Shown: in pieces, positions 9,366 through 43,048 of the stretch
Layout of the letters: each line of letters opens with the position of its first letter
How positions within the stretch are numbered: the stretch's first letter is position 1
Origin: Savitreella phatthalungensis
Taxonomy: Eukaryota
Assembly: GCA_051599415.1 (NCBI GenBank)
Contig: AP039695.1
Span: 186,001 to 250,000 of the forward strand
Direction of reading: 5' to 3'
DNA: 64,000 bases
Notes under the pieces: model-generated
What the model was told of the DNA's origin: nothing
The model's database searches: none
Seen by the model: only the letters and a program-made list of their open reading frames with translations
Program-made: the position numbers and the translations under genes

Positions 9366-11054
9366 ATGACGACAGAGCAACCCATCACAACAGCTGCTCA
9401 ACACAGTCCATCGTCAACGCGATCGATCGGTGTCATGGCTACACCTGAAGTCAGATCTGCCAAGGCAAGGCGCAGGCATGACTTGGCAGCACACCGTGCG
9501 CGTCACGCGACGATGGGCAGTACCTCCTCTATCAGCGAGTATCAGTCTGACGATGAGCATCTTCACTCCTCCAGCAGTAAGAGACACTCCATTGCGTCCC
9601 TCGCATCTGCAGGCCTCTCTGCTGATGATCCAGCACCCCACGCCATGGAGCGCACCTTGTCTGAACCCGTTGTCTACAGCCACCACTCCCGCAGGAGATC
9701 AACTTCGCGGACACCTCGGACGCACTTGCTCGGTCACGAGAGTCAATCTCAAAACATCTCACCGGAGAGTGTCTCCTCGCACGCCTCAATCGACTCACCT
9801 GTCAGACTTCGTGCCGCTAGGAGCCAGCAGCGTGACGACGAGCGCTGGATCAACCTGCTCGAGCGGCAGAATCAGTGCTTGCTCGAACAGCTGTCGACCA
9901 TGTCACGCGATGTGACGACTGCAGACGTGGAGACGACCCGGATTGTGAACAACTCGCACGCACAATTACGCAGTCTGCATGACGAAGTCGACAGTCTGCG
10001 TCAGGCGCTTGACGAGCAGACTCGCAGACACGCGTCTGAGCTCGCGAATTTCCGCGCAGGTGCGATCAAGCAGAAGATTGCAATGACTCAAGCCGTTGAA
10101 GAAGCACAGTCACTCATCGCTCAGCAAGAGTCCTCCCTGGCAGCTATCCGCACAGAGCGTCAAGAGCTCGCAGACATGGTCCGTCAGCAGGACACGGAGC
10201 TTCTCCGACTCCGTCGTCGCGTCGGCGCTCTTGCAGAAGAGATGTTGCAAAAGCGATGGCTAGAGAGCACGATGGAAGAGTCTTCCCGCTCCGTCGACGA
10301 CATGACCTCGATGCTACGTTCCCAGCAACAGCAACAGCACCACCACCAGCACCACCATGGACTCCACACTCCGAGACCATCACTCTCAATTCTTGCCAGA
10401 CGCGGCAGCACATCTCATCCGCAAATCGAGGGCAGTCCGATCTTTAGCGACTTCCTGCCACCTCGGAGCAAGTCCTCACAGGCCTGTATTCCGGGCCCAA
10501 ATCGATCGTCCACCCTCTACTCTAGCCCTGCCACAGCGCTAGAACGTCACTCACCGCCTCCGCCTTCGGCAGGATTACGCAGTCCTCGTGGGACGCCGCT
10601 ACACCAGCAAGTGATGAATCACTCTCCCTCGATCACGCGGACCGGTGTCGGCAGTGATTTGACTGATGACGAGTGCAGCGAAGCTAGTGTTTTGGCAATC
10701 CGCGCTACGTTGCTTGCATTGTGGCATGAGATGCGGCGTCGCGGATGGCAAACCTCCTCTCGTCTCTTGATGCTCCAAGGTCTGCATGGCCGCAGCGCGC
10801 GTGATCCGAGTAACGACGACAGACGTCCGCGTACACGTGCACGCTCCATCACCCAGACCCTCGTCAACAGATCAGCCAACACAGCTCACCACATCACAAC
10901 AGCAGTCTCACATTGGGCACATTTCATACTACTCGTCCTCATCGCAGGATCAATCCTTCTGACGGAAGGACCATCGAGAATGCCGTCCTCATCCATACCG
11001 ACAGGACGAGCCCGTGGTAGATCCAGATCGCCTTCCACGCAAGTCATCCAGTGA
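9366..11054 (+). CDS. Hypothetical coiled-coil protein with a C-terminal transmembrane segment
   Basis: 562-aa ORF. Ser-rich N-terminus, central heptad-rich region, hydrophobic segment HWAHFILLVLIAGSILLTEGP near the C-terminus. Confidence 0.75.
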   Translation: MTTEQPITTAAQHSPSSTRSIGVMATPEVRSAKARRRHDLAAHRARHATMGSTSSISEYQSDDEHLHSSSSKRHSIASLASAGLSADDPAPHAMERTLSEPVVYSHHSRRRSTSRTPRTHLLGHESQSQNISPESVSSHASIDSPVRLRAARSQQRDDERWINLLERQNQCLLEQLSTMSRDVTTADVETTRIVNNSHAQLRSLHDEVDSLRQALDEQTRRHASELANFRAGAIKQKIAMTQAVEEAQSLIAQQESSLAAIRTERQELADMVRQQDTELLRLRRRVGALAEEMLQKRWLESTMEESSRSVDDMTSMLRSQQQQQHHHQHHHGLHTPRPSLSILARRGSTSHPQIEGSPIFSDFLPPRSKSSQACIPGPNRSSTLYSSPATALERHSPPPPSAGLRSPRGTPLHQQVMNHSPSITRTGVGSDLTDDECSEASVLAIRATLLALWHEMRRRGWQTSSRLLMLQGLHGRSARDPSNDDRRPRTRARSITQTLVNRSANTAHHITTAVSHWAHFILLVLIAGSILLTEGPSRMPSSSIPTGRARGRSRSPSTQVIQ

Positions 11055-11931
11055 CGATTTGATCTTCGAACAGCATCATTTAGATAGGCTTTTCACGACA
11101 ATCGATCAGTCACTCTTGTCAGTCTGACTTTCTAGAATCCGATGACAATTCACATGTGTAGATAATTAAGGAGGATCGACCTGTCAAGAATTCATACTCA
11201 CGCATTTGGTTGGTGTAGCACCTGCGAGAGCTTCTTTCCTCGGAAGACAGACATCGTTGAACAGAGCTTCCGAATGACTCGATGGAGATGATCAACCGTT
11301 CGTTCTGATTCCCCAAGTGATCAGGTATCAGAAGTAGGCATGCGTCTGATTTCCCTTTCACTTCAACCCTCACAACACATACTCACATACGTACACTCTG
11401 ACGAGAGTATAGAGCAGAGAGAACAGATGCGAGATGGCAATACAGTTCAGGGAAATTTGAGGCTGCAGACTGTTGAAGGAGTGATTCGGCAAATGACGTC
11501 GACCTCCTAAACCTCGTGGTCCTCTCGTGCTTGACCCAGAATAACTCACCTGGATCAGCTGCCGGACTTTGACTGTGAATTCTATTTTCTACACAAATCT
11601 CCAAGCTCGCTCGAATTAGATTGAGTCAGGGTTGCATCGCCACTTTCATCCATCTGACCTCTCTCTGCACATTCTTCCTATTCTGACAATTCAGCCGAGA
11701 TGGAAGGTTGGAAAAACAATCTTGACAGGTCTCAGATACAATGTTAGTCAGATTCTAAAAATATAATTCACCATCACTTTCACCCGAATACATACCCAGC
11801 CAAGCTTCTGCCTTTTCTTCCTTCATTTGCTACGGCTGTCAAGCTGGGATTGGCATTCTGGAAATGACCGATCCAAGCCATCCATGAGGATCAGCAACTT
11901 CACTCTCTCATTCACACACTCTCACCCAGAG

Positions 11932-11958
11932 ACACACACACACACACACACACACACA
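11932..11958. repeat. (CA)n microsatellite
   Basis: Uninterrupted CA run upstream of the GPI protein gene. Confidence 0.9.
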
Positions 11959-12172
11959 TACTCAGACACCCACACTCAATCACACACCCACGAACGTAGA
12001 CTTTGATCCACCGCGCACGTACCTTCTCCGTACCTTCCATCAACATCCACGCACGTCCCCTGACTCAATCGGATATAAGAACTCATCATCGTCACCATAT
12101 CAAGCGCAACAACTTCAACTCTCGCTAACTCAGACACTCACTCACCTACATCCTTCCAACCAATCACACAAG

Positions 12173-12823
12173 ATGCTCTCGATCCTTGCACTCCTTACAC
12201 CCGCGGCGCTTGCTCTGATGATCACTTCACCACAGCAAAACACAGTCTGGACAACGGGAGAGTCTCAGACAGTGACCTGGAACAGCGTCAACACTGACCA
12301 GCCAACCTTCAACGCCTACCTTTCCAACTACGCAAGCTACCCACCGCAGACAATCCTGCTCGCTTCCGACGTCTCCTCTTCCGCAGGATCTCTGACCGTC
12401 GACGGCTCAAAGCTCGTCGCAGGCAACGCGTTCCAGATTAACTTCACCAACGGTACTCGCACTGAGCAGATCTACGCCCAGTCGAACCAGTTCAACATCA
12501 AGCAGGGCACCAAGGCAGCAGCTGTCTCCGGAGCGTCCTCTGTCGCTTCCACCGCCGTTGCCGGCGCATCCTCTGTCGCCTCGACTGCCGTCGCAGGTGC
12601 ATCCTCTGTTGCATCGACCGCCGTTGCCGGTGCTTCCTCTGTCGCTTCACGCGCAGTCAACGGTGCTACCTCTGTCGCCGGCGCTGCAGCCTCAGCAGTC
12701 ACTGGTGCAGCTGGCGCAGTCGCTTCCACTGTCGCCAACCGCTCAGGCGCTCCTGCATCATCACTTGCTCTCGGATTCGCAGCCTTCTCCTCCCTCGCTG
12801 CAGCCGTCCTCCTCGTCTGCTAG
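12173..12823 (+). CDS. GPI-anchored Ser/Thr/Ala-rich cell-surface protein with Kre9/Knh1-like N-terminal Ig-like domain
   Basis: Signal peptide; domain ITSPQQNTVW...VTWNSVNTD...IYAQSNQFNI; AVAGASSVAST repeats; hydrophobic C-terminal GPI signal. TATAAG at about 12074. Confidence 0.88.
   Translation: MLSILALLTPAALALMITSPQQNTVWTTGESQTVTWNSVNTDQPTFNAYLSNYASYPPQTILLASDVSSSAGSLTVDGSKLVAGNAFQINFTNGTRTEQIYAQSNQFNIKQGTKAAAVSGASSVASTAVAGASSVASTAVAGASSVASTAVAGASSVASRAVNGATSVAGAAASAVTGAAGAVASTVANRSGAPASSLALGFAAFSSLAAAVLLVC
12521..12652 (+). repeat. Intragenic 33-bp tandem repeat (4 units plus degenerate copies) encoding AVAGASSVAST
   Basis: The 11-aa unit repeats with synonymous differences between copies. 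Confidence 0.9.
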
Positions 12824-12969: not shown

Positions 12970-14370
12970 TCAGTGATGTTCTGGGGTAACACCAGTTCCG
13001 CCGTTGTTTCTATCCCCGTTCTCATTCCCGTCATTGTTACCACCGCCACCTCCAGCGCCAGTGCCGACTCCCGCCTCATTACGTCTCCTCAAATGAATAC
13101 AATCCGGATCCTCCGGTTTCGCGCACCCACCACTAATCTGAGCGTTCCGCCTCCACCTCGATCTCCCAGTCATCGCCAACAACTCCTCCGTCAGCAACCA
13201 CGGCGACCTTCTCAACACCTCTTTCCTCATCTCACACCCTTCCTCGCAACCCACCCTGTACGTGCCCCTGCTCTCCCGCCTTTCCAACCTCCGCAACTCT
13301 TCCGCCTCAGCAGCAACATCACGGCGCATCTTGCATCCAGGCAGCGGGTTCGGGTACGGGCATGTGGTGATCTCAGGCGACTCACCACGTCGCTCTATCT
13401 TCTCAGCCGCCTCAGCAACATCCCGGCGCATCTTGCACCCTGAAAGCGGATCGGGGTCTGGACAAGTGGCGACCAAGTTCGATTTCCCAGGAGCAAGCCT
13501 GCCTCTATCGATCGCATCCACCCGGATCCCGCCACGCCTGACCTTCTTTGCCACAGCATGCGTCTCCTGGCGCCCAGCCTGCGAATTCAACCCAGACTGC
13601 GTGGTGATCTCTGATGACTCACGTCGCTCCATCTTCTCATCCGCTACCGCAATCTCTCGACGTTCCTTGCACCCAGGCAGCGGGTTCGGGTATGGGCAAG
13701 TGGTGATGCCATCTGCCTCATCTCGCCTAGGGAGATCACCTTCGTCCGACACAGGTGGCTTCTCCTTGCACCCTGGCTGCGGGTCAGGGTATGGGCAAGT
13801 CTTGATCACGCTCGACACCACTCGCCGACCGAGTTCGCCACCCTCCACACCATGCCCATCGCAGTCGGACGAGGTCGGGTCGGGACATGGGCCTGTGCTC
13901 CCGTTACCGGGCGTCGGTGTCGGCGTCGATGTGTCGTCGCGACGATCCAACAATCTACCACCCTGGCAAGCTGGGTGTGTCGGGTCTCTGCACTGTCGCG
14001 AAGGCGCGCTCCGATCGGGCGTGTCATCCCGTCGGTCGAGCTTGCCCATAAGCGTTCCCTTGTACCACGGAGCGGTCGGGCCGGCCGGGCTTGTTCTGCC
14101 ATTGACCGGTGTTGTCTGCGCAGCACGCCGATCAAGCGCTTTGAAGCCGTGACAGTTGGGATCGTCTGGATTCGGACACGAGCCGGACTGGTGAATCAGA
14201 CCAAGCGACTGGTCTTCAAATCTGGTCGTGCTGCCATCAGCACGGCCGTCGAGCGCAGGGTCGTTGTCCGACAAACTCCTGGCGCCGTTCGGATGGACCG
14301 GCGCAGCGTTGATCGTCAGAGGCAGCACCCAGGCAGCTACGGCAGCAATCTTGCAAAGTGTAATTGTCAT
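12970..14370 (-). CDS. Secreted Kex2-processed repeat protein (KEP) carrying multiple Cys-loop peptides, 466 aa
   Basis: ATG at 14370 gives signal peptide MTITLCKIAAVAAWVLPLTINA. More than 14 RR sites separate units with CPNPDDPNC, CRDPTHPAC, CPDPTSSDC, CPYPDPQPGC, CPYPNPLPGC (x2), CPDPDPLSGC, CEEGC and CAKPEDPDC. Confidence 0.85.
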   Translation of the reverse strand: MTITLCKIAAVAAWVLPLTINAAPVHPNGARSLSDNDPALDGRADGSTTRFEDQSLGLIHQSGSCPNPDDPNCHGFKALDRRAAQTTPVNGRTSPAGPTAPWYKGTLMGKLDRRDDTPDRSAPSRQCRDPTHPACQGGRLLDRRDDTSTPTPTPGNGSTGPCPDPTSSDCDGHGVEGGELGRRVVSSVIKTCPYPDPQPGCKEKPPVSDEGDLPRRDEADGITTCPYPNPLPGCKERREIAVADEKMERRESSEITTQSGLNSQAGRQETHAVAKKVRRGGIRVDAIDRGRLAPGKSNLVATCPDPDPLSGCKMRRDVAEAAEKIERRGESPEITTCPYPNPLPGCKMRRDVAAEAEELRRLERRESRGTYRVGCEEGCEMRKEVLRRSPWLLTEELLAMTGRSRWRRNAQISGGCAKPEDPDCIHLRRRNEAGVGTGAGGGGGNNDGNENGDRNNGGTGVTPEHH

Positions 14371-14936
14371 TGTTCTCTCGAAATACCCGCAGGCCGTTGA
14401 CAGCGATGTGATGTACACATACACTATTGGCGGCTTAAGTAACATGCTCCTGTAGAGGCCAAACGCTCTATCTTCGTCACATAGATGGATCACGCGCGGC
14501 AACGGCGACACAACAGATCGCCCAATTAGGCTAAGTGGCGAAAGTTTTCCTGCAGGTTGTCGCAATTTGCATTACTTGTGTTTCGGCAACGACTTCAGTA
14601 TCGCCACTCATCCTGCAGGCGAAAGGAAGCACGAAAGCGACAAATCGCCACTCAACTATCCTTCAGGTATGTTTCAGAACGCGTCCTCATGATCTACCGG
14701 CAACCGACTTTAATCAAACGAGTCTTTCAACATTCGAGACTTTTCTTCACACCCAGCTGACTAGCGCAACGCTGCTAAATCTCGGACAGCTTCAATACTC
14801 CGATTTGACCCGTTGTGCAATGCACTCGGTCACGCACAACGGGAGATGGAAGGTGGCACTGATAAGCCATTTTGGCAATCTACGACATATTCGATGTCTT
14901 TTTGTGGAGCGAGCCGGCCAAGTAGAGCACCGAATG

Positions 14937-15275
14937 TCAAACCACCTGTGGGACCCAGTCGTTTGTAGTGCTGCTTTCGAGATTGATATCGTCTCGCCTG
15001 CGTATGTTGCCCGGATTGCATCGAGGATCATCGACTTTCTCACAGTTCGTGCTGCCGCCAGCTTGCGGCGCTCGTCGATCCAGCTTGAACTTGTGGTGTA
15101 GCTCTCGTCGATGAAGCGCGTGCTCGTTGGGTGTCTTGACAGGGTAGTTCGCCTTGACAAAGGAGGATCGCTCGGGCAAGTCTCTCACATGAAGCACTGG
15201 CTCTGCAGTTGCCATTGTGACGAGTGGAGAGAACCAGGTCGCTACTGCGACTACCTTGAACAACGAGATCATCAT
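14937..15275 (-). CDS. Small secreted prepropeptide, paralog of the neighbouring KEP
   Basis: Signal peptide MMISLFKVVAVATWFSPLVTMATA; LHRR, LDRR and RRR sites; core APQAGGSTNCEKVDDPRCNPGNI. Confidence 0.8.
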   Translation of the reverse strand: MMISLFKVVAVATWFSPLVTMATAEPVLHVRDLPERSSFVKANYPVKTPNEHALHRRELHHKFKLDRRAPQAGGSTNCEKVDDPRCNPGNIRRRDDINLESSTTNDWVPQVV

Positions 15276-15795
15276 CCCTGAAAATATCTTCTGAACGATG
15301 CGACTTGGCTGGACGTCTTATGTACACCGCTGTGTCGCAACTCAAACAATTCATCCTCGTCACATGGATGCCCTACGTACGCGTGCTGACGGGATCGCAA
15401 CATGTAATCGAATCGGGAAAAGAGGCGAACGACCTCACAGATCGTCAAGGCTGATACAGACAATCGTACGCCACTCTTGAGTCCCCCTTGCCACGCCCGG
15501 CGCAATCGGTTTCGAGACACGTCCTCCTTATTATGATCTCGAGTCGCACCCGCTCCATTCAGCTGTAAAGAGCCGCTCAATCTCGAACACATATGCCACT
15601 CGCATCTGACCTAGGCACTCAACCTATTGGGGATCTTTGCAGCAGTCTTACCACTGGGTCACGCACGATTCAAGTGATGGGATGTCAATGACAGGGATGC
15701 CCTGTAAGGTACTTGACCAAGACTATGCTGTACGCGCTTACACCATCTGCGTTGCACGATCGTTTTGACTCAGTGCTATTCCTATAACTCTGTTC

Positions 15796-16155
15796 CTATC
15801 GATAAATTGGCGGCGTGTCGCGCCTCTGTAGCTCCCCATCGAGCGTCTTACCCTGAATATCAGCATCCCCGCGCTTGCGCAACTTCCCAGAAGTGCATCG
15901 CACATCGTTTGGATTCGGGCACGAATACTGCTCGCTGCCTGAGCCTTGCTGAGCGTCCGCGTCTGCGTGTGCGATCGCGTCACGCCGTCGGAGCGTGCGC
16001 TGATCGCCGGTTTCCACAATTCCACGCGACTCACCAAAGACAGAACGCCCGGACAAGCTTCTCACGTTGTCCACAGGCGTGACAGCGACGGTGAACGCCA
16101 GCGGGAATATTGAGACCGCTACAGTAGCCAGCTTAAAGAGCGAATTCACCATCAT
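15796..16155 (-). CDS. Small secreted prepropeptide, paralog of the neighbouring KEP
   Basis: ATG at 16155 gives signal peptide MMVNSLFKLATVAVSIFPLAFTVA, similar to the 15275 gene. Core RRR-DAIAHADADA-QQGSGSEQYSCPNPNDVRCTSGKL-RKR. Confidence 0.8.
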   Translation of the reverse strand: MMVNSLFKLATVAVSIFPLAFTVAVTPVDNVRSLSGRSVFGESRGIVETGDQRTLRRRDAIAHADADAQQGSGSEQYSCPNPNDVRCTSGKLRKRGDADIQGKTLDGELQRRDTPPIYR

Positions 16156-16871
16156 GCACCTGGTCGTCGATCGGGATGCGCTACGGGCATTGACTGCTGC
16201 CTTATGTAGTGCACAAGACACTCAGTACCATGCTCCGTCGTGTACGTGGCTTGCACCGCGTGACAATGATGTTACATTTCTCCGAATGCGGTCGTTTGGA
16301 AACGGCCTCATATCTGTAGTTGAGTCGTTGAAGCACCGAGAGCTTCCGCCAGGACGGAGGAGGGAGATTGTGGCGGGCGGTCGACTGAGTCGTGCCTTCG
16401 GTGGACGAGTCCAACATTCATACATGAGGAAAAGAGAAGCACGAACTTCCGGGATCGGGATCGGGATCGAAGCAGCATCCACTCCATGGCTGACGAGACA
16501 ATGTGGCCTTCCCCAATTCCGGCTGGCATTCTTGTGACAGCGTTTCTGAACCGAGTCGAGTCAGGCGCGGGGATCGCAGCAGCCGCTAACACTCCATATT
16601 GTTCAGACACTCGGAATTCCAACGATCGTCTCGTGGCAAATAGCCCGAATCTCGATGGTCCATCATTCAATCACAAACACACAGAACGGGCAAAAGACAG
16701 GGAACACAACAACACGAGACGATCGGAGTGAATGATGGGAAGTTGATGAGGATTTGGCGATTGGAGGAGAGCTCTTTCTCGACCGTTGATCGAGATGTGC
16801 TGCTGATGCCTGGACTGAACGTGACATCGAAGCTTTGCAGCTCGACACGCCTGCGTTCGGCAACTCCCCTG

Positions 16872-17267
16872 TTAGGTCAAGAGGCCGCCAGTCGCGGCTG
16901 CCTGCGAAGCCCCAGCTCGCTTCTCGAACACGCTGTGAGGGTCTCCGGTCGTGTCTCCGAGGTCTCCTTCGTCATCGCTTTCGCGCTTCTGGTAGGTATT
17001 CATGAGCTTCGGCGGCGGCGTAGGTGTATGCGACACCCTCGCCCAGGTGACTGTGCCGGTGGGGTAGTTGCGCTTCTCGAGGTCCAGAGCTGCCATGAGC
17101 TTCGGCGGGTGCGTGGCCCTGGCACAGGTGGGAAGACATGCTTGAGGATCACGCTTGTCGAGCTGAGCATCAGCCGTGCCGGGTGAACCGGGCACGGCAA
17201 TTGCATTGACAAGCGCTGGAAGGGCGATCGTCACACCTAGCGTGAGTAATTGGTTGAGTGAGTACAT
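16872..17267 (-). CDS. Small secreted Kex2-processed repeat protein
   Basis: ATG at 17267 gives signal peptide MYSLNQLLTLGVTIALPALVNA. Four KR sites (LDKR, LEKR, YQKR, FEKR); two related units ending in H..PPKLM. Confidence 0.8.
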   Translation of the reverse strand: MYSLNQLLTLGVTIALPALVNAIAVPGSPGTADAQLDKRDPQACLPTCARATHPPKLMAALDLEKRNYPTGTVTWARVSHTPTPPPKLMNTYQKRESDDEGDLGDTTGDPHSVFEKRAGASQAAATGGLLT

Positions 17268-17867
17268 CTTGTCAAGGTGTGGCAGGCTTGGGAACGGTCG
17301 CAGCGATATCGATTTTGGACAGGGTAGAGAGGCGGACAACCGGGGTTAAGTAGACCTGGGGATAAGTGCTCAGGTGATCGTGAGGGCGTTATCAAGCACT
17401 AAACATGGCGTCCCGGAACAACCTCGTGGATGTGAGGGCGTGGTTGAAGACGAGACTGTCGACAAGTCATGGCCAGAGACAGTGATAGACAGATCATCAA
17501 TTACAGACAAAAAATGGGCGTGGAAAGGATAAGTTTGCGCCTGTGGATGCGGCGAAGTGAGCCATGCTGCGTGAAATCGAGATGACCTCGAGCCGGGACG
17601 GGTGATGCACGAGCATGCCAGGAACTGCGGAAGGCATATCGCCCTCGCACGGTTCTGGCGTGACGGCATGGGTCGCTGACTCAGTACTCAGAGTGATTGC
17701 GCAACTGGTCAAGACCATGAACAGCCACACTCAAGTACTCTCTGTCGGGCATTGTTGTGGTTCGAGCCGAAAGAATTGATTGTTGTCAAGTCTCTGGACA
17801 GATGATGCACACGCGGCAGGTGATTCGCAGTGTGTTATGTGCAGTGATCAGCCGGGCGCACCTCCTC

Positions 17868-18137
17868 TCAATAGCAATAAGGTTCGCACTTCTCGACCTC
17901 AGGTTCTTCCCAGAATCGATGGTGGTTGGACATGGGTCTTGGCGGTGTATGCTGAATCCAACCTCCTGGATGACGGATTGGGTAGCCTTCGTCTGGTAGG
18001 ATATCGCTGTCCTCGACCGGGACGACTGTCGGGTCTTGCTCTGACGGTGTGACTTCGAGCGGCGCGCGAGGTACTGGGATTACGGCTGCTGTGCAGAAAG
18101 ACGCGAGGCCTATGGTAAGGACAAGCGAATGGCGCAT
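17868..18137 (-). CDS. Small secreted protein, 89 aa
   Basis: ATG at 18137 gives signal peptide MRHSLVLTIGLASFCTA. Acidic pro-like region, HPGGWIQHTPPRPM segment and C-terminal CEPYCY. Confidence 0.65.
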   Translation of the reverse strand: MRHSLVLTIGLASFCTAAVIPVPRAPLEVTPSEQDPTVVPVEDSDILPDEGYPIRHPGGWIQHTPPRPMSNHHRFWEEPEVEKCEPYCY

Positions 18138-18336: not shown

Positions 18337-19692
18337 CTAGTACAAGGTAGTGATCTTGGTTGCACCATCTGGGAGTTTTGCTCTGAGGACAGCGCCTGGG
18401 TGGACACGGTAATCTGTACCGTTGTTCCAGTCCGGTTGGAAAGGAAGTTGGTTGATGTTGATGTAGATGTAGCCGTCTGCGCCGACGGTCGCTCCATCTG
18501 GCCAGAGGATTCGCGGGTCGCGGAGGAATGGCCGAGTCTCGCCGACTTGCGGATCGAACGCGTAGATGGCGTTCTGAGACGGCATCAGCTGGTAGATTCT
18601 GCCTGACGAGTCGCCTTCGAAGCCGTTCGCGTTTCCGCCACGCTGACCCCAATCACTCACGTTGCTGTGCGCCCACACCTCAGCGAGTGGCTCGCTTGGT
18701 GGAACGCGTAGATTGGAGGTCGGCACGGAGTAGAGCGTATTGGAAGTCAAGGGGGAATAGTACATTCTAAGACCATCTGGAGACAGCTGGATTCCGTCGA
18801 GTCCTTCCTTCTGCCATGTTACCGGCGATCCGAGCTGGCGGAAGTAGAAGGGGTTGCCGAAGTACGTCGGCACGTCCTGCTGGACACGCAGGACAGATGG
18901 ATCCTGCTCCAAACGTCGCCAAGACTTGCCGGATCCCAGGTCGACCATGATGAAGCCCGGTCGGCCCTCGTTTGAGGAATCGACAAGGTATGCAATGCCT
19001 TGGCCGGTCGTGCCAGACAGATTGCTTCGCAGATCGAACCGGAGGTCATTCAGATACGAGTCTGGATAGTGGACGGTGGCAGGGAATGTGAACGTCTGGT
19101 AGATGGTGTCGTTTGAGAGGCTGATGGCGACGAGCTTGGGGCCGCCAGGTTGAGCATATGGCATGCTCGGCGCGCCTTGTGCATCGTGAACTGTCGGTCT
19201 GCCTGTATCGAGCACCCACAAGGTCTCCGGCCTGGAACTAGTCTGCGGTGTGATGTAGAGCGCCTGGACTGAGATGAAGGCCGAGCTATTATCGCTGCCG
19301 AAGGCGATGCCATTGAACGAGGTGTTCAGTCGGGAGACTGGCAGGTTGAGGTCGAGCGAAGGGTAAGCGCGTTCAGCAGTCTTGTTGACCGTTTCTCCGA
19401 GCGTGTATCGGTAGTCTCCGCGAGTGTAGGAGACGAAGAATCTACCCGTGGATGAGATGGCCAGGCCAATGGGCCACTGGTCGTAGTAGTAATGATACTC
19501 TTCGAGCTGTGGACCATAGACACCGCTGTCGTAGCGCAAGACTGAGCTTGATGGCCTGCAGAACGTAGAGCTGTTACTCGATGCATTAGTGCTTGTGGAG
19601 CCCGGCAGGACTGTACTGTTGAGATGAGCGTCGGTGATAGGGCTTGCGACCTGTGCCGCTGCACCTGCAGCTAACACTAGCAGTGAGAACAT
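18337..19692 (-). CDS. Secreted major royal jelly protein/yellow-like beta-propeller protein
   Basis: Signal peptide. MRJP-like motifs FISVQALYI, LWVLDTG, PKLVAISL, YLNDLRFD, GLDGIQLSPDG..MYYSPLTS and DPRILWPD. Confidence 0.88.
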   Translation of the reverse strand: MFSLLVLAAGAAAQVASPITDAHLNSTVLPGSTSTNASSNSSTFCRPSSSVLRYDSGVYGPQLEEYHYYYDQWPIGLAISSTGRFFVSYTRGDYRYTLGETVNKTAERAYPSLDLNLPVSRLNTSFNGIAFGSDNSSAFISVQALYITPQTSSRPETLWVLDTGRPTVHDAQGAPSMPYAQPGGPKLVAISLSNDTIYQTFTFPATVHYPDSYLNDLRFDLRSNLSGTTGQGIAYLVDSSNEGRPGFIMVDLGSGKSWRRLEQDPSVLRVQQDVPTYFGNPFYFRQLGSPVTWQKEGLDGIQLSPDGLRMYYSPLTSNTLYSVPTSNLRVPPSEPLAEVWAHSNVSDWGQRGGNANGFEGDSSGRIYQLMPSQNAIYAFDPQVGETRPFLRDPRILWPDGATVGADGYIYININQLPFQPDWNNGTDYRVHPGAVLRAKLPDGATKITTLY

Positions 19693-32609: not shown

Positions 32610-33392
32610 TTAGTCGTCAGCCGGCGAGTCAGGCTGATCGTCAGCAAACTCATTTGATTTTCTCGAGAGCATGCTACGCTTCGAGAAGAACGCCCTATCC
32701 GCCCGACCGAGCACCTTTCCTGCACTATCCCTCCTCGGCTCCCTTCCCTTGACGCGTGCCCCGACACCGGATTCCATCGCCACCGGCACACACGAGCCAA
32801 ACGGTCCGGCGATCGAGCGCGCCGTTCTACACCTGATCAGACAGACGTTGCCGTTTCTCGAAGCCGCGCACGGTGTAGCGTCTTTTGGAATCTCGACGGT
32901 TAGTGGGAAATCCCTTGCCCTGGCAGCCGAGAATCCCATGATCCCAGGCACGTCCTGCGTGATCGTCAGCGGTACCCAGACGTCTCCCTTGGTTGAGGAG
33001 GAGAGCTCGCAGGATACGGGACCTGCGCCGTCCTGGTTGACTTGGTGGAAGGTCATGGTGATTGGGGTTGCGGGTGCGATGGTCGGGAGTTGGTTTTGGG
33101 GGAGGGTTTTGATGAGCGCTTCGACATCGCGGTCGATGTCGATCATCCCGCTCTGCTTCGTCCAGCCGCACGGACCAGACACGCCTGACCGGATCGCACC
33201 GTCGCGGATGATGGACGAGTCACGCTGGAACGGGTTCGCTCGGCCGCCGTTACGGGGAGTCAGTGGGTCTACACCGAGACCACGGCCCTCGATGCCGTTC
33301 AGGCCTTTGATCCCGGTAATGGCGGCGTGGGCAGAGACAGTCGCTGGAATGATGACGGTCAGGGCGGCAGTGATGGTGGGAATGAGTTGCAT
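32610..33392 (-). CDS. Secreted Egh16/GAS1-like (DUF3129) protein
   Basis: ATG at 33392; signal peptide ends VSA|HAAI. Family motifs NPFQRDSSIIRD, CGWT, MTFHQVNQDGAGP, CLIRCR and AGPFGSC. TATATAAG on the minus strand at 33444-33451. Confidence 0.85.
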   Translation of the reverse strand: MQLIPTITAALTVIIPATVSAHAAITGIKGLNGIEGRGLGVDPLTPRNGGRANPFQRDSSIIRDGAIRSGVSGPCGWTKQSGMIDIDRDVEALIKTLPQNQLPTIAPATPITMTFHQVNQDGAGPVSCELSSSTKGDVWVPLTITQDVPGIMGFSAARARDFPLTVEIPKDATPCAASRNGNVCLIRCRTARSIAGPFGSCVPVAMESGVGARVKGREPRRDSAGKVLGRADRAFFSKRSMLSRKSNEFADDQPDSPADD

Positions 33393-33776
33393 GGTGAACT
33401 CGATAGGCAGGGGCACGACAGATTCGTCCGTGAAGTGGCAAGACTTATATATCGAAGACTGCATGGTAAAGAGGGAAGATAACGAGACGGGCAACGGTCG
33501 TGTTGCATCGCAGATCGAGACAATCTACGAAGGATGCTCTGATGGAGTGTGACGTCCTAGGTTTGACCAACCGGCATTGTTTTAGGGAAATGTGGCGACG
33601 GATACTGCTACATGGGATGATTCGTCGAGGCTATTTGGCCAGTGATCGATTGAGCTTGAAATTGGAGGAACTCGAAAGTGGTTTTAAATTCGATTTTCGA
33701 GTGTAAAGGACGGGATGGGACGGTCGGAGTATTGGGTATGGTCATCTTGTGATGAATGTGATGGGATATTGCTGCT

Positions 33777-42526: not shown

Positions 42527-43048
42527 TCATGTCGACCTGAAATCTGAAGAAGCCTTCTTGAACATATCGTCAACTTTCTGTCCTTCTGCCTCGATCTTTG
42601 GTTGGAGTGCTGGTTGGACCTTTGTCTTGAGCTGGTTTGTGAGCGTGAGGGTTGACTCTGTGAGTTGGTCGAGTGATGTCTGTACTCTTGGCCTGAAGAT
42701 TCTCGGGAATGCGGATTTCTTCTGGACGACTGCATCCAGAGTTGCCTGGAGGTCTGGAATCAGTCCCTCGACGGCTGTGAGGATCTTCTGCGACTCGTCG
42801 TCAGGCAAGCTCGACAACGCGTTCGCATCCGAAGCCATCTGCTTCATCGCCGACGTCACGCGCCCGGAAGCAGAAGACACAGACGCCGTTCCAGCCAACC
42901 CGCCAGAGTAACCTTGCGTCGTACTCGTCATCGCCTTGATCGAGGTCTGCAGCTGTGTGAAATCGTTCAGGAGCTTGTTTGCATCCTGTGCGAGGACGAT
43001 CGATGCCGCAGTTGCGAGGAGCGCGATGGTTCTGATGACAACCTGCAT
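42527..43048 (-). CDS. Secreted helical protein, HsbA/cell-wall mannoprotein 1-like
   Basis: ATG at 43048; signal peptide MQVVIRTIALLATAASIVLA; amphipathic helices with LPDDESQKIL...TLDAVVQKKSAF, a pattern typical of HsbA. Confidence 0.72.
   Translation of the reverse strand: MQVVIRTIALLATAASIVLAQDANKLLNDFTQLQTSIKAMTSTTQGYSGGLAGTASVSSASGRVTSAMKQMASDANALSSLPDDESQKILTAVEGLIPDLQATLDAVVQKKSAFPRIFRPRVQTSLDQLTESTLTLTNQLKTKVQPALQPKIEAEGQKVDDMFKKASSDFRST

Follow-up and report, generated by a model that had tools for sequence, protein, structure and literature searches.

The stretch of DNA considered here (the window; 64,000 nucleotides of contig AP039695.1 of Savitreella phatthalungensis, assembly GCA_051599415.1, positions 186,001 to 250,000) is an intron-poor fungal region with a GC content of about 55%. 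It carries five minus-strand open reading frames (ORFs), g1 to g5 (Table 1), which an initial annotation, made from the sequence alone, had described as an island of tandem secreted precursor genes encoding a single family of disulfide-loop peptides. The five ORFs exist as described: translated from their ATGs, they match letter for letter five proteins in an NCBI-derived protein set, all from one 635-kb contig, while longer versions of g1 and g5 that start at upstream ATGs have no exact match in the same set. An independent gene caller therefore produced the same models, which is not evidence of expression. The genes are spaced 520–716 nt apart, and only 199 nt separate the g5 ATG from the stop codon of the gene upstream, a member of the major-royal-jelly/yellow family (MRJP). 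On the other side, g1 converges with a Kre9/KNH-like ORF. These two immediate neighbours replace the housekeeping genes among which the island had been placed.

Table 1. Positions of the genes, gene parts and other features discussed in the text, numbered from the first nucleotide of the window.
Feature	Position	Strand	Description
g1	12970–14370	minus	ORF, 466 aa, ATG 14370; multi-core precursor of the KEP type
g1 signal-peptide-like N-terminus	14305–14370	minus	residues 1–22, ends ...TINA before APV; Kyte-Doolittle mean 1.82, elsewhere ≤ 0.20
g1 N-terminal half	13822–14304	minus	residues 23–183; CPNPDDPNC, CRDPTHPAC and CPDPTSSDC, with L-x-R-R after each loop; aligns collinearly with all of g3
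g1 repeat block	13276–13821	minus	residues 184–365; four CX8C units, T-C-P-x-P-x-P-x-x-G-C-K
g1 C-terminal part	12970–13275	minus	residues 366–466; CX3C fragment CEEGC, last CX7C loop CAKPEDPDC, Gly/Asn-rich tail
g2	14937–15275	minus	ORF, 112 aa, ATG 15275; single-loop paralogue, CEKVDDPRC between LDRR and IRRR
g3	15796–16155	minus	ORF, 119 aa, ATG 16155; single-loop paralogue, CPNPNDVRC between LRRR and LRKR
g4	16872–17267	minus	ORF, 131 aa, ATG 17267; KEP-like precursor, sequence unrelated to g1
g5	17868–18137	minus	ORF, 89 aa, ATG 18137; Pro-rich, signal-like N-terminus, C-terminal CEPYCY
Kre9/KNH-like ORF	12173–12823	plus	PF10342, E = 1.2e-14; convergent with g1
MRJP gene	18337–19692	minus	PF03022, E = 7e-21; directly upstream of g5
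562-aa ORF	9366–11054	plus	no Pfam family
(AC)n/(GT)n-type microsatellite	11884–12046		just upstream of the Kre9/KNH-like ORF
33-nt tandem repeat	12528–12678		within the Kre9/KNH-like ORF; 4.6 copies, 80% matches
Egh16-like virulence-factor family protein	32610–33464	minus	E = 5.5e-48
HsbA hydrophobic-surface-binding protein	42527–43048	minus	E = 4e-20

In each of the five genes, the frame given in Table 1 outscores the five other possible frames in codon usage, and GC content at third codon positions (GC3) is 0.55–0.67, against 0.56–0.75 in reference genes. No Pfam family is matched by any of the five proteins (best E = 0.013, well below the cut-offs), and none by the alternative frames over g1. 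All five proteins begin with a hydrophobic segment (best 19-residue Kyte-Doolittle mean 1.75–2.15, compared with at most 0.50 elsewhere) and have no second hydrophobic stretch; the signal peptide that had been proposed for each gene is thus represented in all five by a signal-like N-terminus.

The largest of the genes, g1, is built from small cysteine loops set between dibasic sites. Cutting its product at every [KR]R after the signal peptide yields 17 fragments, nine of which contain exactly two cysteines and eight of which contain none; when the dibasic sites were held fixed, not one of 20,000 permutations reproduced this pattern of zero or two cysteines in every fragment. The nine pairs consist of four CX7C loops, four CX8C loops and a single CX3C loop. 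The CX7-8C loops are Pro-rich and far more numerous than composition would give (8 against 1.03 expected; 0/10,000 shuffles), and they comprise seven different sequences, with CPYPNPLPGC occurring twice. The N-terminal half contains long, unrepeated fragments of 28–58 residues, and the repeat block that follows corresponds to the DNA repeat families D1 and D2, which are 67–72% identical. Within this block, three of the four CX8C units are followed by RR and an acidic spacer that ends in ERR or LRR.

The firmest internal support for the frame, and for selection acting on the loop motif and the cleavage sites, comes from the codons of the repeat block. Two 14-residue cores (ITTCPYPNPLPGCK) are identical in protein sequence, and the codon differences between them number three synonymous and zero nonsynonymous. 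Both codons of the RR that follows these cores also differ synonymously, whereas four of the five codons upstream differ nonsynonymously. Eight residues are invariant in all CX8C units: T(-1), the two loop cysteines C(0) and C(+9), the prolines P(+1), P(+3) and P(+5), then G(+8) and K(+10). Five of these positions (T(-1), C(0), G(+8) and the prolines at +1 and +3) nevertheless show synonymous differences. When the four units are compared in pairs, the loop has 19 synonymous codon differences against 13 nonsynonymous ones, compared with 13 and 74 in the flanks.

Dibasic RR/KR sites had been reported in four of the five genes; they are indeed present in g1 to g4, and g5 has none. Compared with shuffled sequences, [KR]R sites are in excess in g1 (17, with 7.6 expected; P = 0.0004) and g4 (4, with 0.62 expected; P = 0.0013), marginally enriched in g2 (P = 0.048) and not enriched in g3 (P = 0.11), so that neither of the latter two is significant alone. 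The four sites of g4 read LDKR, LEKR, YQKR and FEKR; P4 is Leu in the first two. Taken together, 18 of the 26 dibasic sites of g1–g4 have L, I, V or M at P4, compared with a background of 14.5% (p = 4e-10), and 14 of the 26 have D or E at P1' (p = 3.6e-6). The motif [LIVM]-x-[KR]-R occurs at a density of 1.5–2.7 per 100 residues in g1–g4, against 0–0.71 in 21 other ORFs of the window. The enrichment of an aliphatic P4 matches the motif of the Kex2 protease, which has Arg at P1, Lys or Arg at P2 and Leu or another aliphatic residue at P4 (PMC8528282). In g2, g3 and g4, as in g1, both mature cysteines of a pair lie within one fragment.

These sites bear on whether the g1 product would be cut at all. 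An alternative is that g1, and perhaps g2 and g3, encode proteins that are secreted but remain intact or are only partly cleaved, and act as wall-associated or host-binding repeat effectors similar to Ustilago Rsp3, with the Cys pairs serving as local staples. Repeat-containing secreted proteins are known both with and without Kex2 processing (PMC5293756, PMC8528282), and the long unrepeated fragments in the N-terminal half of g1 would suit such a protein. In addition, Asp occupies P3 at five sites (three LDRR sites in g1 and one in g2, and LDKR in g4), which is reported to be kinetically unfavourable for Kex2 (PMC8528282). However, it would be difficult to account for the aliphatic P4 residues, for Cys pairs that are never split by a dibasic site and for RR codons retained despite synonymous change if the sites were not used, and together these patterns make the uncleaved protein an unlikely alternative.

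The relationship among the five genes is narrower than had been proposed. An ungapped alignment of g2 and g3 spans 103 residues at 31% identity (BLASTP E = 7e-16), g1 and g3 are collinear over g1 residues 1–118 (E = 2e-6), and g1 and g2 have the signal peptide in common (E = 6e-5). The related signal-peptide pattern noted earlier for g1–g3 is present, and the alignment shows the three proteins to be laid out alike, with the signal peptide followed by a pro-region, then L-x-R-R, a single CX7C loop and further dibasic sites. At the DNA level, the only similarity among the three units is a single 21-nt stretch, 90% identical, between the first loop of g1 and g3. Since g1–g3 are similar as proteins and almost not as DNA, they are old coding duplicates. 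Just after the signal peptide, the pro-regions contain the motifs ARSLSDND, VRDLPERS and VRSLSGRS (in minus-strand segments 14011–14370, 14937–15275 and 15796–16155, respectively), in which the R and the L are the same in all three aligned sequences; this motif may represent a second processing or sorting signal.

No significant similarity links g4 (E = 0.14) or g5 (E = 4.5) to g1. Local duplication, as first proposed, thus holds for g1–g3 and not for g4 and g5, and the claim that the five genes encode one peptide family fails, as g1–g3 are the only demonstrable relatives and g5 in addition lacks a dibasic site. g4 has one CX3C fragment and two fragments that share PPKLM, the latter corresponding to an internal 21-nt repeat (D9) that is 90% identical. 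From its LDKR-type sites, it appears to be a small precursor built on the same plan but independent of g1. The strings on which the earlier grouping was based, namely CPNPDDPNC, CEKVDDPRC and CPNPNDVRC for g1–g3 and CEEGC, CLPTC and CEPYC for g1, g4 and g5, are all present.

Upstream of the five genes, no exact 9–12-mer is common to three or more regions and no 8-mer to four or more. Short imperfect direct repeats (D4–D6; 20–31 nt, 71–80% identical) do occur upstream of g1–g4, at 15416–15435, 16428–16447 and 17323–17342, at 14460–14487 and 15343–15370, and at 14605–14635 and 16415–16445; because no exact k-mer is shared across the promoters, they may be due to chance.

The small size of these ORFs raises the question of whether some or all of them are artefacts of gene prediction, above all g5 and possibly g4. 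Long chance ORFs are numerous here owing to the high-GC DNA, and none of the five ORFs has a homologue in the collections searched. The least secure gene call is g5, which lacks dibasic sites, shows the lowest GC3 among the five genes (0.55), has a codon score (0.055) that is lower only in g1 (-0.011), and begins just downstream of the MRJP gene. It is best treated as a small, unrelated secreted ORF whose standing is in doubt. On the other hand, protein paralogy without DNA similarity and the synonymous-only core changes argue that g1–g3 are genuine, the excess of KR sites and the Leu at P4 in two of them argue the same for g4, the frame is the best of six in every case, and the combination of loops and dibasic sites is unique to g1 in the six-frame translations described below. 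An artefact is therefore improbable for the set.

If g1–g4 are cleaved at their dibasic sites, about 12 one-disulfide peptides are predicted, nine from g1 (19–58 residues) and one each from g2, g3 and g4, and g1 is predicted to yield short acidic spacers as well. This agrees with the earlier expectation that more than ten short Cys-cyclised peptides may be released. Net charge is zero or negative in 11 of the 12 Cys-containing fragments. A cationic antimicrobial reading was rejected as unlikely on this ground, and the antimicrobial role that had been offered among the possible functions is correspondingly disfavoured, as mostly acidic or neutral fragments argue against classical cationic antimicrobials.

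The architecture of g1 corresponds to that of the fungal Kex2-processed repeat proteins (KEPs), which have been defined by a signal peptide, the absence of a transmembrane segment, at least four fragments between KR/RR sites of which at least three are similar, and repeats that cover at least 15% of the length (PMC6339444). Judged by hydrophobicity only, g1–g5 all have a signal peptide and no transmembrane segment. The number of KR/RR fragments is 17 in g1, 4 in g2, 4 in g3 and 5 in g4, and 1 in g5. Three or more mutually similar fragments were found only in g1 (the four CX8C units, identical at 9–14 of 15 positions, and three acidic spacers), as determined from our own alignment and not with the MEME/FIMO pipeline of PMC6339444. 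g2 and g3 have a single core each and g4 has two, which falls short of the rule of three repeats, and g5 does not resemble a KEP in sites, fragments or repeats.

KEPs are widespread: a survey of 1461 strains catalogued 7878 of them in 1345 strains, or about 5 for each ascomycete. Of these KEPs, 2560 stand alone without homologues, and most KEP types are confined to one genus (PMC7329392). A DUF3328 gene lies nearby in only 22% and is absent for 78% (PMC7329392). By these figures, an orphan KEP without a DUF3328 neighbour is ordinary, and g1 shares with other KEPs its signal peptide, the lack of a transmembrane segment, its many KR/RR fragments, its repeated cores and the absence of both outside homologues and a DUF3328 neighbour. 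It differs in that its cores are heterogeneous, Cys-bracketed, Pro-rich loops and not near-identical linear repeats, and in that single-core paralogues, g2 and g3, stand in tandem with it. In Coprinopsis, mass spectrometry showed that KEPs are cut into linear peptides, with neither cysteine nor disulfide mentioned in the accessible text (PMC9769878). The strings CPNP, CPDP, LPGC, DPNC and PPKLM are absent from the machine-readable supplements of PMC6339444 and PMC7329392; the KEP list of PMC6339444 in PDF form lies outside that search and may hold a similar core. A match to CPYP in the KEP-survey supplements proved to be a gene name and not a peptide sequence.

Alpha-factor-type pheromone precursors (ppg1/CCG-4) are secreted polyproteins of this kind, and it could be proposed that g1 is the ppg1-like precursor of this species, with the CX8C units as the mature pheromone. 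In the ESM Atlas, the nearest neighbours of g1 are a 'Pheromone 1' cluster from Ascomycota (0.82) and an MF_alpha cluster (0.75), both of which are leads only. Ascomycete alpha-pheromones are KEPs, many of them with two Cys and a PG or GQ turn (PMC10569646, PMC6339444), and pheromone KEPs lack DUF3328 neighbours (PMC7329392). Cys-paired examples include RFCHLPGQGCSK (PMC6339444) as well as WCGRPGQPC and CKYVGQGCW (PMC10569646). As in these precursors, the g1 product would be a secreted polyprotein cut at KR/RR sites into short cores with two Cys; RR follows three of the four CX8C units and PG is present in three of the four, which end in PGC, while no GQ occurs.

However, several features separate g1 from this group. 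An alpha-factor precursor contains one conserved repeat of 9–14 residues (PMC10569646), whereas only two of the nine Cys fragments of g1 have an identical core, and seven sequences are found among its eight loops. The XA/XP (STE13) dipeptides do not follow the RR that precedes the cores, where DE, GE, DD, VV and others are found instead (for instance DEAD.. and GESP..). The loops are CX7-8C and not CX6C, the cores contain no Trp, and single-core paralogues adjoin g1. Neither Pfam MF_alpha nor MF_alpha_N matches g1 at E ≤ 1, and no sequence relative was found, though alpha-pheromones vary little within families (PMC10569646). For these reasons, a pheromone precursor is considered very improbable.

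Other Kex2-dependent systems resemble g1–g3 in part. Rep1 and Rsp3 of Ustilago maydis are likewise secreted, repetitive, lineage-specific precursors with Kex2 sites (PMC8528282, PMC7329392). The Rep1 peptides are 37-residue, water-repellent wall peptides (PMC6339444, PMC7329392), whereas the g1 fragments are hydrophilic, acidic and Cys-looped and have no sequence similarity to them. In effectors with a Kex2-processed pro-domain (K2PP effectors), a Kex2 motif (KR, RR or LxxR) closes a pro-region in the first half of a secreted protein (PMC8528282). g2 and g3 share this layout: behind the signal peptide, a probably disordered pro-region ends in L-x-R-R in the first half of the protein and precedes a small Cys-containing part, with the sites ALHRR at 57 and KLDRR at 68 in g2 and TLRRR at 58 in g3. 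They differ in that the part after the pro-region is 23–34 residues long, with a predicted single disulfide and further dibasic sites behind it, and is not a folded effector domain.

A KEP-type precursor is also the first component of ustiloxin-type ribosomal peptide synthetic (ust-RiPS) pathways (PMC7329392), and three of the CX8C cores of g1 contain Tyr. The locus might accordingly be a cluster for ribosomally made peptides with post-translational modifications (RiPPs), ustiloxin/dikaritin-like or other, whose cores are modified by enzymes encoded nearby. In ust-RiPS clusters, a DUF3328/UstYa gene lies within about 15 genes of the KEP gene, at 3.09 genes on average (PMC7329392). No such gene was found in the window among the ORFs scanned, in agreement with the initial annotation; the scans covered 30 large window ORFs and, between 3 and 32 kb, 58 of 105 stop-to-stop ORFs with a length of 90 aa or more, the remaining 47 being large genes already scanned or frames inside them, and exons shorter than 90 aa may be missed. 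Nor did tyrosinase, methyltransferase, P450 or S8 protease domains appear among the hits of the same Pfam scans. A plain disulfide is also the likely closure of the g1 loops, as opposed to the Tyr ether cross-link of the dikaritins. Modification by a local RiPP pathway is thus the remotest of the explanations considered here.

Relatives of the island genes were sought at several levels. No relative of g1 was returned by a word-indexed search of a collection of 5.8 billion proteins, and no true relative by an exhaustive phmmer search of 1.84 billion representative proteins, whose sole match (P0001, E = 5.6e-6) was discarded as a low-complexity repeat protein without the g1 motif. g1 did not find itself in the latter search because the 90%-identity cluster that contains it (that of P0002) is represented by an unrelated 56-aa ENA protein (P0003, P0004), which looks like a clustering artefact. 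A profile built from g3, g2 and the N-terminus of g1 matched only g3 and g2 themselves, a search with g4 returned only g4, and 87 pattern matches to g1 in metagenome contigs gave 0 confirmed relatives. The statement that no described family is involved therefore stands for Pfam and for the protein collections searched.

Synteny was followed from the MRJP neighbour, which has 42 homologous metagenome loci (L001–L042; 51–79% identity, 332 kb in total, contigs of up to 100 kb). When window ORFs of at least 120 aa (stop-to-stop) were compared with these loci, the only matches were to the MRJP gene and to one opposite-strand ORF inside it. The best of the loci (L023) has no KEP-like ORF downstream of its MRJP gene, and relaxed tblastn against all of them gave matches at chance level only; the best of these, between g3 and L013 (E = 0.075), was set aside as it lies on the strand opposite to a longer, unassigned ORF. 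The MRJP gene has a different genomic context in every locus found. As synteny is not preserved around it, the absence of the island from these loci says little. In six-frame translations of 396 kb, only g1 combines at least two Pro-containing CX7-8C loops with at least three dibasic sites; a crude KEP finder applied to the same 396 kb returned mostly Arg-rich noise ORFs.

Taken together, these observations make it reasonably probable that g1 encodes a lineage-specific KEP, that g2 and g3 are its single-core paralogues, that g4 is an unrelated KEP-like precursor and g5 a doubtful gene, and that the locus would give rise to about 12 one-disulfide, Pro-rich, mostly acidic peptides. The KEP-like architecture that was recognised at first, a signal peptide with cores bounded by dibasic sites, is upheld; the unity of the five genes and their novelty were overstated. 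The g1 product would enter the endoplasmic reticulum by its N-terminal signal peptide, and neighbouring Cys pairs would close into small Pro-rich loops (CX7C or CX8C). A Golgi kexin would then cut after [L/I/V/M]-x-R-R and a Kex1-type carboxypeptidase would trim the basic residues, which would release about nine different one-disulfide peptides of 19–58 residues along with the short acidic spacer peptides. g1 itself probably arose from a single-core gene by internal amplification.

Several points weigh against this account. The repeat coverage of g1 is borderline relative to the 15% rule, at 13% for four 15-residue units and 17% for four 20-residue fragments, and reaches about 23% when all eight loops are counted. 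The signal peptides of all five genes were judged by hydrophobicity alone, and the five sites with Asp at P3 have been mentioned above. In codon usage, g1–g5 score lower (-0.01 to 0.13) than 15 genes of the window taken as reference (0.12–0.42). The ESM recognition value of g1 is low (1106), which according to the tool says nothing about whether a gene is real. Finally, no orthologue of any island gene was found in the collections searched, and the case for conservation rests for that reason on the paralogues and internal repeats only.

As the predicted peptides are acidic or neutral, they are more likely to serve as extracellular signals or effectors than as membrane-active antimicrobials. 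A more specific and rather speculative suggestion is that the locus constitutes a lineage-restricted library of disulfide-constrained, Pro-rich loops, which would be ligands of receptors or effectors resembling protease inhibitors, directed at a host or partner organism. The C...C frame (CX7C/CX8C) would be fixed and the residues within it variable, and the polyprotein and its single-core paralogues would display at least ten different loops. Families of peptides with a fixed scaffold and variable loops exist in animals and plants; a loop library at this locus, if real, would be their fungal counterpart.

The architecture of g1 is common in fungi and does not constitute a new class of system, given that KEPs number in the thousands, that about a third have no homologues and that several KEP knockouts have no axenic phenotype (PMC7329392, PMC9769878), as found for six kep knockouts in Coprinopsis (PMC9769878). 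The peptide type encoded here is, nevertheless, without detectable relatives. In the accessible text of the KEP catalogues, alpha-pheromones are the only case for which Cys pairs in cores are discussed; should the predicted peptides indeed be produced, the KEP-derived peptides of fungi would gain a core type that is Cys-looped and Pro-rich. The locus also offers a compact example of how a multi-core precursor can grow from a single-core gene, with selection concentrated on loop and cleavage sites. In practical terms, it yields about a dozen short peptides that could be synthesised for bioassay.

Other features of the region are less directly related to the island. The 33-nt repeat in the Kre9/KNH-like ORF encodes a Ser/Ala-rich repeated stretch of the GASSVASTAVA type. 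As read here, this 216-aa ORF is absent from the protein collection, so the public model must differ in its start or contain an intron. The microsatellite upstream of it was recognised from His-Thr-rich and Cys-Val-rich translations on opposite strands. Farther out, the 562-aa ORF has unnamed Ascomycota clusters as its nearest ESM Atlas neighbours (0.92), followed by weaker matches to Cep57-like coiled-coil proteins. Its mainly ascomycete neighbours, along with the Egh16-like and HsbA genes, suggest that the DNA comes from a filamentous ascomycete. No Rfam family was found between positions 11000 and 20000. The remaining genes of the window encode, among others, a kinesin, a GH15 glucoamylase, a WD40 protein, the 75-kDa subunit of complex I, EMC7, MINDY, an acyl-CoA synthetase-like protein, Nop14 and an amino-acid permease, together with the Egh16-like and HsbA proteins, which are both of the secreted type and typical of filamentous ascomycetes.

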